Positions 2,424 through 7,271 of a stretch of 64,000 bases of DNA are shown here, one piece after another; the first letter of the stretch is position 1; the number at the start of each line of letters is the position of its first letter. Position numbers and translations under genes: made by a program. The notes under the pieces are model-generated. The model ran no database searches. It was not told the origin of the DNA and worked only from the letters and a program-made list of their open reading frames with translations. The stretch comes from Escherichia coli (GTDB taxonomy: Bacteria > Pseudomonadota > Gammaproteobacteria > Enterobacterales > Enterobacteriaceae). Location: the NCBI RefSeq assembly GCF_016026235.1, contig NZ_CP065613.1. One strand, 5' to 3'.

Positions 2424-2984
2424 TCAGCCCCAGCTGGATCCAGTCATCAGGCTCTTTCTTAAAGGGGGAGTATTGAAATCACGAAGAAGAGCCTCCCGCA
2501 CCGCAGCATCCATGTCTGCACCACTGGCAAGTGCTTCAATCTCTGCCGCCACCTGCAAATACCCCATGCAACGGCCAATGCGTTTCATAACTCTGGTGTT
2601 TTCGTCTTTCAGGCATCTGATAGCGAGATTAATAATTTTCAGGCAGTGATGATGCGATGCCCGGACAGGTTTTCCGTTCTCATAAACGACGAACTCACCC
2701 TCTTCACAGGAAACCCTGAAAGGCCGACGGGGTTCCTGGTCTTTATCCGGTGCAGACGCAATAAAATCACTTTTATGCTCTTCCTCTCCGGCACTGTTAA
2801 CCGTAATGACGTACTCAGGCCGCAGGTAAGCCGCCTCTTTTTCTGACAATGCGGCCGGTAAAAACTTTTCCTGCAAAAACTTCATAAAAGTCTCGTGAGC
2901 GACTTTGTGGCAGTAATCGTAAATCGCCGCATAATGCTCATCGCGGCGTTTGTTTTCATCTTCAGAACTCACCAACGCCGACAA
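2424..2984 (-). CDS. hypothetical protein inserted between holin and endolysin
   Basis: 186-aa ORF (TTG or GTG start) between S and R; no recognisable domain; a 27-aa coupled ORF with good SD lies just upstream. Confidence 0.45.
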   Translation of the reverse strand: MSALVSSEDENKRRDEHYAAIYDYCHKVAHETFMKFLQEKFLPAALSEKEAAYLRPEYVITVNSAGEEEHKSDFIASAPDKDQEPRRPFRVSCEEGEFVVYENGKPVRASHHHCLKIINLAIRCLKDENTRVMKRIGRCMGYLQVAAEIEALASGADMDAAVREALLRDFNTPPLRKSLMTGSSWG

Positions 2985-3055
2985 TTTTTATTAAGCTCAG
3001 TGATTTCATTTTCCAGGTGATTGAATCGCTGATTCATTTCTTCATGCTTCATTAT

Positions 3056-3271
3056 TTACTCTCCCCGTGCAGCCTTACGCTTGTCTTCTCTTATTTTGAA
3101 ATACAGATTCGTCAGATAAGTCAGAAGCCCCAGAAGCAGACTTCCCAGCACACCAATCGCAGCCCACTGTGATGGACTGACCTGATCCAACCACTGCAAA
3201 AACCAGTAGCCGGCACTGCCGGCGGAGGTGCCGTAGGCAATGCCCGTTGAAATTTTGTCCATGGATTTCAT
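3056..3271 (-). CDS. S: pinholin (phage 21 S21-like class II holin, dual-start motif)
   Basis: 71 aa; [24 protein letters not shown]... matches the phage 21 S21 pinholin pattern incl. M1-K-S-M4 dual start; two TM segments. Confidence 0.8.
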
Positions 3272-3563
3272 AGCCTCACCTCCGCAAATAACGGATGGCG
3301 TAGTTTTACACTGAGAAATGAAAGGGATTTGAAAAGAAAAAAACGCAAAAGCGGGCGAAACGATATATACAGTAAGGAAAGCACTCTATCCAACAAACCA
3401 CCCACAGTTAATCGGAATAAAAGCAGAGTGCTTATGAATGATCGCACGCCCGAAGGTTAGTATTTCTGCACAGCAATTTTGCAAAAAAAGGCGATCATTC
3501 ATAACTTAAACGTCTTTCAGTCACTCCGGGATTTCCCATCATCGCAGACTGAAAGACTCTGAC

Positions 3564-3638
<75 letters not shown>

Positions 3639-3641
3639 ATA

Positions 3642-3717
<76 letters not shown>

Positions 3718-3719
3718 GC

Positions 3720-3796
3720 TGGCCCACCACCGAGGACTCGAACCTCGCACCGTCAACTTAGAAGGTTGATGCTCTATCCGGATGAGCTAGTGGTGG
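3720..3796 (-). tRNA. tRNA-Arg (anticodon UCU, reads AGA), phage-type
   Basis: Cloverleaf with anticodon loop CUUCUAA, T-arm CGAGGUUCGAGUCCUCG, encoded CCA; 5' base appears to be C, which is unusual. Confidence 0.7.
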
Positions 3797-3797
3797 T

Positions 3798-3874
3798 TGG
3801 TGGCCCTTGCTGGACTTGAACCAGCGACCTGGCGATTATGAGTCGCTCGCTCTGACCAACTGAGCTAAAGGGCC
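3798..3874 (-). tRNA. tRNA-Ile2-like (anticodon CAU, lysidine-type; could be scored as Met)
   Basis: GGCCCUUUAGCUCAGUUGGUCAGAGCGAGCGACUCAUAAUCGCCAGGUCGCUGGUUCAAGUCCAGCAAGGGCCACCA, close to E. coli ileX-type tRNA. Confidence 0.75.
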
Positions 3875-3961
3875 GGAGGCAGAATAATAACCATATGTCA
3901 TCACATCTGCAAACTCATCTGACCACCAGCGTGTTTAACGTCCTGTACCGTTTTTCAGGCA

Positions 3962-3990
3962 TAAAAAACCCGCCCGGAGGCGGGTTTAAG
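3962..3990 (-). terminator. intrinsic terminator between Q and the tRNA cluster (tR'-like)
   Basis: On minus strand: hairpin CCCGCC-UCCG-GGCGGG followed by UUUUUUAU. Confidence 0.5.
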
Positions 3991-4073
3991 CTGTGTGGCG
4001 AAGCAACCACTCTTAACAGAATATCCCGTTTTTTACGTACGTAAAATATTTTCTAGAAAGTCGCCCCTTACCA

Positions 4074-4490
4074 TCAGGGATGTTCAATATATTTGTCCAT
4101 TTCTAACCGGACACCCAACATCATCAACATTCCTTCCACCACCCCCTCGGCTTTTTGTAGCTTCTTTCCTATATAACCATCTGAGCATCCATGCTTCCGC
4201 GCCAGCGTCATGAATGTCATCCCAAACACGTAGTAGTCAACCAGCAAGTCATGTAGATCGTTGTTGTTCCGGTTAAGGCGGGCCATACACCCACATATAA
4301 CCATCGCGTCATCGTCACAGCATTGCGGGCGGGATTTTACTTTTGAAGGGATTAATCCCTTAAAACCGGCAGCAATGGACGACCAGGTCACATCCTCATG
4401 ATTATTAGCCACCCACGCGCCCCAGCGCTCAAGAACCTGCTGAATATCACGCATCACTGTCTTTACCCCTGTCCCATCCACGATGAACAA
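4074..4490 (-). CDS. Q: late antiterminator Q (phage 21/933W-type)
   Basis: 138 aa with Cys-rich zinc-finger-like core ([16 protein letters not shown]) and position immediately upstream of terminator and lysis genes. Confidence 0.75.
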
Positions 4491-4650
4491 TCAGAACACC
4501 ATCAACAATGGCGTGCCCTTTGCCCTCTTTATCTTCAGCATATTTTCTTACCGTGGCGCGATTACAGTTCAGCATTCGTGAAACTTCGGTCATATTACCT
4601 CGTGTCTGGATAAGCAGTTCCGGTATCGTTTGAATTTTGACGCTCATCAA
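4447..4650 (-). CDS. ninH: NinH-like protein
   Basis: 67 aa resembling lambda NinH (…[34 protein letters not shown]…[13 protein letters not shown]). Confidence 0.8.
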
Positions 4651-6387: not shown

Positions 6388-7271
6388 GCAGCCACACCTC
6401 TGATACGAGAACGGTAACTGGGCCAGTTAAACGACAACCAGTTGCGTCCCCCGTCTGTGATCCTGTCGGCAATTCGGGGACTGATGAACGCCCACAACTC
6501 TTCCGGTGAGAGGTTACTGATCAGAATGGTGGGCAAGATACTTTCGTACCTGGCGTTGATAATTTCCTGCAAAATAGCCATTTCAGCCGCGCTGCCAAAC
6601 TGAACGCCAACTTCGTCGATGATCAGCAAATCCATTGACGCATAACGCTCAATAACTTCATCCGCTGTTTTTTCGCTGTCATTCCGCCAGCAATTTTTCA
6701 CAGCACGGGTAAGGCGCATCACGTCGGTGATCTCCACACTGGCCAGATAGTTACGGATGATGTGTTTTGCCATTGATACCGCCAGATGATTTTTCCCGGT
6801 TCCGCAACTGCCGGTCATAACAAGACTGGTACCGTTCTCCAGCATATCTGGCCAGTTCTCCGCATAGCGGCGACAGGCCGCAAGATTCCTGGCTGCGTCA
6901 GGATTAACCTCCAGATAATTATCAAACTCGCAGTCCCGAAAACGCAGGGCAATTCCGGCGTTATCAGTCAGCTCTTCCGCCTTGATGGACGACAGCTCCA
7001 TGGTCAAATCGTTGGCCTCAGCGATTAAGCAGTCAGGGCAGCATGAAATTTTTTCTCTGTCCTCGCCATTACGATCGCTCCACACCAGTATATGCGTGTG
7101 ATATTCGCCATGTTTTTCGCAATATCCGCGACCTTCACGCATCAGGCAGGAACGATAAGGCCATGGCTTTTCGCCCTTCTGAGCAAATGCAATCTCTGCC
7201 CGTAACTCATCCATTCGCGCCTGTAGTCTTTTTTGTTGTTCACGCAGGTTAAACGTCATCATCGCTGTCAC
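6384..7271 (-). CDS. DnaC/IstB-like AAA+ helicase loader
   Basis: Walker A GSCGTGKNHLA, Walker B LLIIDEVG; N-terminal Cys/His-rich region; translationally coupled to helicase. Confidence 0.8.
   Translation of the reverse strand: MTAMMTFNLREQQKRLQARMDELRAEIAFAQKGEKPWPYRSCLMREGRGYCEKHGEYHTHILVWSDRNGEDREKISCCPDCLIAEANDLTMELSSIKAEELTDNAGIALRFRDCEFDNYLEVNPDAARNLAACRRYAENWPDMLENGTSLVMTGSCGTGKNHLAVSMAKHIIRNYLASVEITDVMRLTRAVKNCWRNDSEKTADEVIERYASMDLLIIDEVGVQFGSAAEMAILQEIINARYESILPTILISNLSPEELWAFISPRIADRITDGGRNWLSFNWPSYRSRIRGVAA

Follow-up and report, generated by a model that had tools for sequence, protein, structure and literature searches.

What lies between the tRNA genes and the holin gene of a lambdoid prophage when the genes of Shiga toxin (Stx), carried at this site by other phages, are missing? 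The question is raised by a stretch of 64,000 nucleotides (nt) of Escherichia coli contig NZ_CP065613.1 (assembly GCF_016026235.1), referred to here as the window, in which a gap of 292 nt (3272–3563) separates the gene for tRNA-Gly from that for a holin. A preliminary description of the window regarded this gap as an empty stx position and drew attention to two perfect inverted repeats in it, of 14 and 11 base pairs (bp), which, it was suggested, could be processing or termination structures of the tRNA transcript, or recombination scars of cargo exchange at this hotspot. We find that the 14-bp repeat forms the base of a hairpin, SL2, which is the core of a conserved noncoding RNA of ~180 nt with the order SL1-SL2-SL3, located at 3379–3557 on the minus strand. 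The notion of an empty position is thus misleading, since the 292-nt gap consists almost wholly of this conserved noncoding module.

Both repeats are present as described. The arms of the longer one (3432–3445 and 3491–3504; TTATGAATGATCGC / GCGATCATTCATAA) are 100% complementary and 45 nt apart, while those of the shorter one (3512–3522 and 3547–3557; GTCTTTCAGTC / GACTGAAAGAC), also 100% complementary, are 24 nt apart and begin, in the direction of transcription, 6 nt 3' of the CCA of tRNA-Gly. A third repeat, absent from the preliminary description, pairs nine of nine bases between 3379–3387 and 3425–3433. The chance level was estimated from 100 dinucleotide-preserving shuffles of the 64-kb window, in which perfect hairpin-type repeats with loops of up to 100 nt were counted. 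Repeats of at least 14 bp occurred at a mean of 0.03 per shuffled window (in 3 of the 100 shuffles), and the real window contains one, that at 3432–3504. The 11-bp repeat alone is at chance level (2.06 expected in shuffles), and it is validated solely by covariation in relatives. Other perfect hairpin repeats of at least 11 bp with loops of up to 100 nt are found at 6738/6846, 19863/19947, 24842/24879, 29607/29628, 35019/35039 and 63554/63634; as the window holds 16 seed positions against the 2.06 expected, some of them may be real structures, such as terminators.

The three hairpins differ in their architecture. SL1 (3512–3557, minus strand) has the 11-bp repeat as its basal stem. Its other parts are an asymmetric internal loop, UGCGAUGAU / GGAGU, which is strongly conserved, and a hairpin at the apex, GGG-AAAU-CCC; the window copy folds at −21.1 kcal/mol, with a z-score of −4.95 against shuffled sequences. 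SL2, the core hairpin (3432–3504, minus strand; −23.7 kcal/mol, z −3.99), is built on the 14-bp repeat, and the 45 nt taken to be a spacer hold an inner helix of 8 bp, P2a (UUUUUGCA / UGCAGAAA), whose loop of 9 nt, AAAUUGCUG, is conserved. A small CC-UUCG-GG hairpin in SL2, P2b (CC-UUYG-GG), is possible, without compensatory support and with some disruptions. SL3 (3379–3433, minus strand; −20.2 kcal/mol, z −4.54) comprises a basal stem of 7–9 bp, made by the third repeat, and an inner helix, and bears a near-invariant G/U-rich segment, GGGUGGUUUGUUGG. Folding, proposed in the preliminary description as a check on the repeats, places all three hairpins at z −4.0 to −5.0, and the whole 292-nt spacer at z −3.5. 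Across the viral loci described below, SL2 is always present, SL3 usually, and SL1 is optional, being absent in some relatives; one homolog (L235) is entirely without the inner helix P2a. By eye, the SL1 loop GAUGAUG...GGAGUGACUGA (3525–3546) resembles a C/D-box or kink-turn arrangement, and also the variable loop and T-arm of the adjoining tRNA-Gly (3564–3600; UGAUGAUGCGGG...CCCG), and SL1 may be derived from a tRNA.

The evidence that this structure has been under selection comes from diverged copies. An alignment of six of them shows compensatory changes in all three stems, together with near-invariant loops, and the loops are in general more conserved than the stems. For SL2 and SL3, RNAalifold and pair counts were applied to 56 distinct sequences, giving 2117 pair cells, and the consensus consists of a long outer SL2 helix around the 8-bp inner helix, followed by an SL3 of two helices. 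Standard pairs occupy 97.8% of the cells, as opposed to 38–46% when the partners are slid by 1–3 columns; compensatory changes are found in 12 pairs, against 1–7 in the slid controls, and the covariation score is 0.267, against 0.06–0.08. Five of the 15 pairs of the first SL2 helix and seven of the 15 pairs in the two SL3 helices (helices 3 and 4) are compensated, and the second SL2 helix, of 8 pairs, is paired in 99.8% of its cells. SL1, present in 30 distinct sequences, behaves likewise, with 97.1% of cells paired, as against 35–58% in slid controls, and four compensated pairs. The strand can also be told from the alignment, as G-U cells number 259 and A-C cells 16, and pairing reaches 97.8% on the strand that encodes the tRNAs and late proteins as against 86.3% on the antisense strand. 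This excess of G-U and the better pairing in the sense orientation indicate an RNA of the tRNA/late-gene strand rather than a DNA palindrome, and we consider it highly probable that an RNA structure on that strand is under selection.

The module is not a coding sequence, because the U-run in SL2, which is 6–9 long among near-identical copies, shifts the reading frame as its length changes, and because the short open reading frames (ORFs) differ between clades. Two such frames, one of 38 amino acids (aa) at 3386–3502 and one of 10 codons in the HK639 type, were considered as coding candidates and rejected, neither being conserved and the frame being broken by indels of the U-run. Two phage records, ON470583.1 (18592–18882) and ON470580.1 (16397–16685), have a 'hypothetical protein' spanning the element; in view of the covariation and of the frame-shifting U-run, this call is probably spurious. 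The general marks of a structured noncoding RNA, namely compensatory pairs, strand-specific G-U pairs and the lack of a conserved reading frame, are thus all observed.

The 292-nt spacer is present in 529 of 5426 complete E. coli genomes, nearly always at 95–100% identity and at a median of one place per genome; these copies are always chromosomal and never annotated. It also occurs in four temperate phage records at ~97% identity, and matches of 75% identity over the repeat-bearing part were obtained in the Q-to-holin leader of phage HK639 and in a prophage of E. coli OW1E2, the latter copy accompanied by a different antiterminator gene and a different holin. The repeats are thus conserved in related phages, one of the points on which the preliminary description had made its reading depend. 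A scan of IMG/VR with an invariant 19-mer, TTTTTGCAAAATTGCTGTG, yielded 120 loci. A covariance model, R1, built from the SL2-SL3 alignment, finds one copy in the window (3361–3509, minus strand, 159.4 bits), and matches of 151–158 bits in Citrobacter sedlakii, Yokenella regensburgei and Phytobacter ursingii, as well as one of 102.7 bits, cut off at the end of the locus, in a Pseudocitrobacter metagenome-assembled genome. An 18-mer scan of genome contigs returned 16 matches, of which four, all in Enterobacteriaceae, were confirmed by R1, the rest being due to chance. One locus (L107) has a second, weak R1 match (954–1054, 32.5 bits, E 3e-4) ~1.3 kb upstream of its main copy.

All genes near the repeats are on the minus strand, in the order Q, tR', promoter, tRNAs, gap and holin. 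The upstream neighbour is a Q-family late antiterminator gene (4074–4490, minus; ORF and RefSeq), labeled 'antiterminator Q family protein' by RefSeq in a genome of 99.9% identity. An intrinsic terminator resembling tR', AAACCCGCCUCCGGGCGGGUUUUUUAUG (3960–3987, minus), recognized from its sequence and inverted repeat, lies 3' of the Q gene and separates the presumed pR' from the tRNA unit; we infer its assignment to tR' from its position. The tRNA array (3564–3874, minus; ARAGORN and RefSeq) comprises, in transcription order, a tRNA with anticodon CAU, which is Met according to ARAGORN and Ile according to RefSeq, followed by Arg-UCU, Thr-UGU and Gly-UCC; as ARAGORN places tRNA-Gly(UCC) at 3564–3638 on the minus strand, its CCA end is at 3564. 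Downstream of the gap is the gene for a class II holin of 71 aa starting with MKSMDK (3056–3271, minus; ORF and RefSeq). A perfect 9-bp inverted repeat (3222–3230 / 3277–3285) links the Shine-Dalgarno region of the holin (GCGGAGGUG, minus strand) with holin codons ~14–17, its arms being 46 nt apart; it could sequester the ribosome-binding site, and repeats of 9 bp are common by chance. An extra minus-strand ORF of 186 aa (2424–2984), a hypothetical protein of 209 aa in RefSeq, lies between the holin and endolysin genes, which usually abut; relatives have other inserts there (YdfR family, DUF1327).

The same arrangement recurs in other phages. In most of ~115 loci, the element follows a tRNA array on the same strand and starts 1–7 nt past the CCA. 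Copies bearing SL1 start 6–7 nt after the CCA, nearly always that of Gly-UCC, and in copies without SL1 it is SL2 that starts, 1–2 nt after. Holins of several unrelated sequence types are found 200–900 nt downstream, and the antiterminator genes upstream also differ between loci. Some relatives are without an upstream tRNA, and hence the link to tRNAs is frequent and not obligatory. In L002/L147 (44443–44514), L005, L035 and L048, a decayed tRNA is situated just upstream of the element, with the T-arm, the 3' strand of the acceptor and the CCA kept and the 5' half degenerate. The tRNA 3' end thus seems to be of importance to the element. The late leader of HK639 (L147, 44266–45230) is a row of RNA modules, none of them annotated in the record, in the order tR', tRNA, decayed tRNA-Gly, element with terminator, STnc100 with terminator, a further terminator and holin. 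Its tR' is isrJ-like (34.6 bits, below the gathering score of 37), the decayed tRNA-Gly scores 27.5 bits, below the tRNA gathering score, and STnc100 (44780–44985) scores 52.6 bits against a gathering score of 47. In this row, the element behaves as one more RNA module.

How the unit may be transcribed is suggested by its borders. A −35 hexamer (TTGCAn) and a −10 hexamer (TATTAT/TATCAT), spaced by 17–18 nt, are conserved in 54 distinct and otherwise unalignable upstream contexts, ~9 nt before the first tRNA and 3' of tR'-type terminators. The window copy, of sigma-70 type (TTTGCA / 18 nt / TATTAT; 3884–3913, minus), is a putative Q-independent promoter of the unit formed by the tRNAs and the element, which suggests that prophage tRNA arrays downstream of tR' may be expressed without Q. 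No terminator was found between the tRNA array and the element in the window. Beyond the element, 46 of 56 distinct tails have a hairpin with a U-run within ~60 nt of SL3 (20–60 nt downstream); these terminators belong to at least four unrelated sequences, and two often stand in tandem. In the window, this position holds a decayed remnant (3331–3357, minus), CGCCCGCUUUUGCGUUUUUUUCUUUU where most relatives have GCCCGCUUUUGCGGGCUUUU, with a 3-bp hairpin and a z-score of −0.52, so that it folds no better than shuffles. Among near-identical copies (L006, L010, L014, L021, L028 and others), the 3' arm is graded, GCGGGC > GCGGGT > GCGGTT > GCGTTT, the window having the last and weakest form, and such graded decay may tune how much transcription leaks from the tRNA promoter towards the holin. 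Taken together, these features suggest that the promoter, the tRNAs, the structured RNA and the terminators make up a Q-independent unit that would insulate the lysis genes.

That the repeats could themselves be termination structures, as had been considered, is not supported. SL1 and SL2 lack U-tracts and are therefore not terminators: the minus strand continues with GCACUCUGC after SL2 and with GUUUAAG after SL1, a terminator scan of the window gave no site within 3379–3557, and the real terminators of the relatives are 20–60 nt past SL3. The element shares with intrinsic terminators and lambda tR' a stable hairpin in the late leader, but its long stems are rich in A/U and bear large, structured loops, and separate bona fide terminators are found upstream (3960–3987) and, in relatives, downstream. 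The view that they belong, as RNA structures, to the tRNA transcript is, by contrast, upheld by the covariation, by the prevalence of G-U over A-C and by the fixed start 1–7 nt after the tRNA 3' end.

Comparison with known RNAs places the element as most likely a tRNA-operon trailer RNA at a prophage hotspot of small RNAs (sRNAs). Of the trailer RNAs, the closest analog is 3'ETS-leuZ, an RNA from the 3' external transcribed spacer of the tRNA operon glyW-cysT-leuZ in E. coli, reportedly described by Lalaouna et al. (2015). Like it, the element follows immediately on the final tRNA of an operon, in the same orientation, and presumably becomes free when the tRNA 3' end is processed. An intrinsic terminator, at which 3'ETS-leuZ ends, closes the element in 46 of 56 distinct relatives and is decayed in the window. 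Unlike it, the element is prophage-borne, 3–4 times longer and composed of three conserved hairpins. We know of no sequence relationship between the two, whose sequences were not compared here.

The interval between pR' and holin is itself a hotspot for small RNAs, which harbors AgvB and AsxR (PMC4104026) as well as PasA/C/D and STnc100 (PMC8550237; bioRxiv 10.64898/2026.05.13.724894). The element occupies the same Q/pR'-to-holin niche of lambdoid prophages as AgvB/AsxR (RF02702/RF02703), STnc100/PasD (RF02076), PasA/PasC and StxS; like these pR' 'moron'-site sRNAs, it is noncoding and usually followed by an intrinsic terminator, and in HK639 it is directly upstream of an STnc100 copy. AgvB/AsxR and PasA/C, however, are short and convergent to the late operon (PMC4104026; PMC8550237 Table S6), whereas the element, of ~180 nt, runs in the same direction as the late operon and is joined to a tRNA array. 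Searches for a closer relative were negative. With Rfam 15, cmscan of 2800–4600 (E ≤ 1) and of 3290–3580 (E ≤ 10) gave tRNAs and noise alone, with AgvB, AsxR, STnc100, isrK, isrJ and C4 among the families unmatched. The PasA, PasC, PasD1 and PasD2 sequences, taken from E2348/69 at the coordinates of PMC8550237 Table S6, gave chance matches to the window in blastn at word size 7 (PasA/PasC/PasD), the spacer had no match at the three Pas loci, and neither did R1. Two further candidates were dismissed: an RNA from RIL-seq (in which interacting RNAs are ligated and sequenced) beside a pseudo-tRNA-Gly in prophage PP10 of E2348/69, which scored 6.7 bits with R1 and is not this element, and a likeness to GcvB (GUCUGCGAU, UUUGCAA and a G/U-rich stretch), which is not colinear, involves chance-level 9-mers and has no Rfam GcvB match. 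A full-text literature search for the conserved words, spelled as DNA and as RNA, gave one unrelated paper, and a search on 3'ETS, prophages and tRNAs gave nothing on the element. The element thus makes up a family of a known kind that has no Rfam entry.

How would such an RNA act? According to the model that we favor, the tRNA array and the module would be one transcription unit, started at the conserved sigma-70 promoter 3' of the Q-controlled tR', and maturation of the tRNA 3' end, by RNase E or other 3'-end processing, would free the module in the form of a compact and highly structured RNA. Its end, in most relatives, would be at one or two intrinsic terminators, which would bar Q-independent transcription from the lysis genes. 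During lytic growth, Q-modified polymerase coming from pR' would read through, and the module would then be part of the late-mRNA leader. The invariant loops would be the likely functional surfaces: in SL2, AAAUUGCUG with the bases around it; in SL3, GGGUGGUUUGUUGG; and in SL1, the internal loop GAUGAU/GGAGU. The most probable role would be that of a stable trans-acting regulatory or sponge/decoy RNA of the prophage, akin to the pR' 'moron'-site small RNAs and to the host glyW-cysT-leuZ 3'ETS RNA. The full model, of a released, stable and trans-acting RNA, is held with moderate confidence, and several points weigh against it. Much of the covariation reflects the split of two main clades, so that independent covariation events are fewer than the cell counts. 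Homologs were gathered by exact-word anchors, which inflates conservation at the anchor; this was partly controlled by a scan anchored outside the 19-mer, in which 29 of 48 distinct homologs matched the 19-mer exactly and a further 13 of the 48 had one mismatch to it, its commonest change, U to C, making a U-G pair of the inner helix C-G. Some relatives (L017/L058, L086 and the OW1E2 type) are without an upstream tRNA or without SL3. In the window, with its decayed terminator, the RNA 3' end may be undefined and transcripts of the tRNA promoter may run towards the holin. Finally, we infer the co-transcription, processing, 3' ends, stability and action in trans.

The main rival, which is possible though distinctly less probable, assumes that the module acts purely in cis as part of the leader, in one or more of three ways: by defining sites for tRNA 3' processing, by capping the downstream RNA once the tRNA is excised, which would shield the lysis mRNA from 5'-end-dependent RNase E decay, or by giving the long untranslated leader a structure on which Rho cannot load. 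It accords with the position of SL1, or of SL2 if SL1 is absent, 1–7 nt after the CCA via an A/U-rich linker, with the location of the element, always on the late-gene strand between tRNAs and lysis genes, and with the processing structures envisaged in the preliminary description. Nevertheless, generic hairpins would not need near-invariant loops over 75%-diverged copies, and terminators usually part the element from the lysis genes. As the distance to the holin varies over 200–900 nt, and STnc100 or extra terminators can intervene, the holin mRNA of those phages is not capped at its 5' end by the hairpins. Those same terminators have a place in an unlikely alternative, a read-through device, working by put-like antitermination or as a ligand- or protein-sensing switch on the downstream terminators, which would gate access to the lysis genes without Q. 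Such a device would fit the layout, in which variable terminators and then genes come after a conserved structured domain, as well as the multiple stem-loops with conserved internal loops and the presence of the element in HK639, which has an annotated putL-like antiterminator RNA. The element does resemble the HK022 put and HK639 putL-like RNAs in being a set of phage tandem stem-loops with conserved internal loops, located upstream of terminators in an operon leader, and in occurring in HK639. It differs from them in that it lies in the late rather than the early leader, where a Q protein is present, and in that R1 matches neither the HK022 genome nor the HK639 putL-like RNA: with filters off, the best R1 hit in the whole of HK022 is 8.5 bits (E 8.4), and in the whole of HK639 only the late-leader copy is found, the annotated putL-like RNA (34187–34312) being unmatched. 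All these phages have Q-type antiterminators, and antitermination by the element would defeat the insulating terminators; constitutive antitermination from a sigma-70 promoter to the holin would presumably be self-destructive for the lysogen. Moreover, terminators that are unrelated in sequence make a conserved alternative pairing impossible. A riboswitch-like pairing of 7 bp (GUGGGUG / CGCCCGC), seen by eye in the window type, was rejected, as it is not kept in the HK639 type. A related and rather improbable proposal regards the element as a protein- or polymerase-directed RNA device of lambdoid phages rather than as an sRNA that acts by base pairing. In one version, it would be a decoy made of tRNA parts for a host RNA-processing or defense factor, with the kink-turn- or C/D-box-like GAUGAU...CUGA loop of SL1 and the acceptor-like 7-bp stem of SL3; in the other, it would be a Q-independent conditional read-through switch that admits transcripts of the tRNA promoter to the lysis cassette, the leak being tuned by graded terminator decay.

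Two readings would deny the element any function as an RNA. A decaying relic of duplicated tRNA genes, carried along as a functionless passenger of the array, is very unlikely: SL1 shares, by eye, GAUGAUG-GGG...CCCG with the variable loop and T-arm of tRNA-Gly, SL3 is closed by a 7-bp stem, and decayed tRNA copies adjoin the element, as in HK639 (27.5 bits), but no tRNA model matches SL1-SL3, and in a relic, pairing of 97–98% with compensatory changes, and loops that hardly vary between clades and genera, would not be kept. A DNA-level feature, be it a protein-binding palindrome or operator, a remnant of a miniature inverted-repeat transposable element (MITE) or insertion sequence (IS), or a scar of cargo exchange at the stx position, is scarcely tenable and has been largely refuted. 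Perfect 14-bp arms are unusual, the site is a known hotspot of module exchange, and partner junctions fall at the element borders; yet a palindrome would keep its sequence, whereas the arms change in a compensatory manner, and a cruciform would not tolerate G-T, whereas G-U is tolerated on one strand alone. Further, the window has one copy, the median is one place per genome, and neither a target-site duplication nor a direct repeat is found beside the arms. The scar hypothesis had foreseen that the repeats might flank the stx cassette, and it fails because they do not. In the Stx2 phage Min27, the Q-to-S interval of 5 kb contains stx2AB and other genes, without the element or either repeat arm around stx, and no Stx phage record matched the spacer in the phage sequence search. 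Scars are likewise at odds with arms that covary instead of being fixed ends, with a single-copy element and with loops that are more conserved than stems. Stx2 phages match the head of the array (promoter, Ile and Arg) at ~84%, and the tail of Thr, Gly and element is not shared. The best-supported account remains a conserved structured RNA behind the prophage tRNA operon, at the late-leader hotspot of sRNAs.

Roughly a tenth of complete E. coli genomes, and prophages of several other Enterobacteriaceae, carry the element, yet RefSeq leaves it unannotated; with the covariance model and alignment, annotation and experiments have a direct handle on it. If it is a stable RNA of the lysogen, it would add a new family to the host-rewiring pR' 'moron' RNAs (AgvB, AsxR, the Pas sRNAs, STnc100 and StxS) and would provide a phage example of a tRNA-operon-trailer RNA. 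The putative Q-independent insulating unit, in turn, bears on the expression of prophage tRNAs in lysogens, and on the question of why stx takes the place of this module in Stx phages, whose arrays have the same head.

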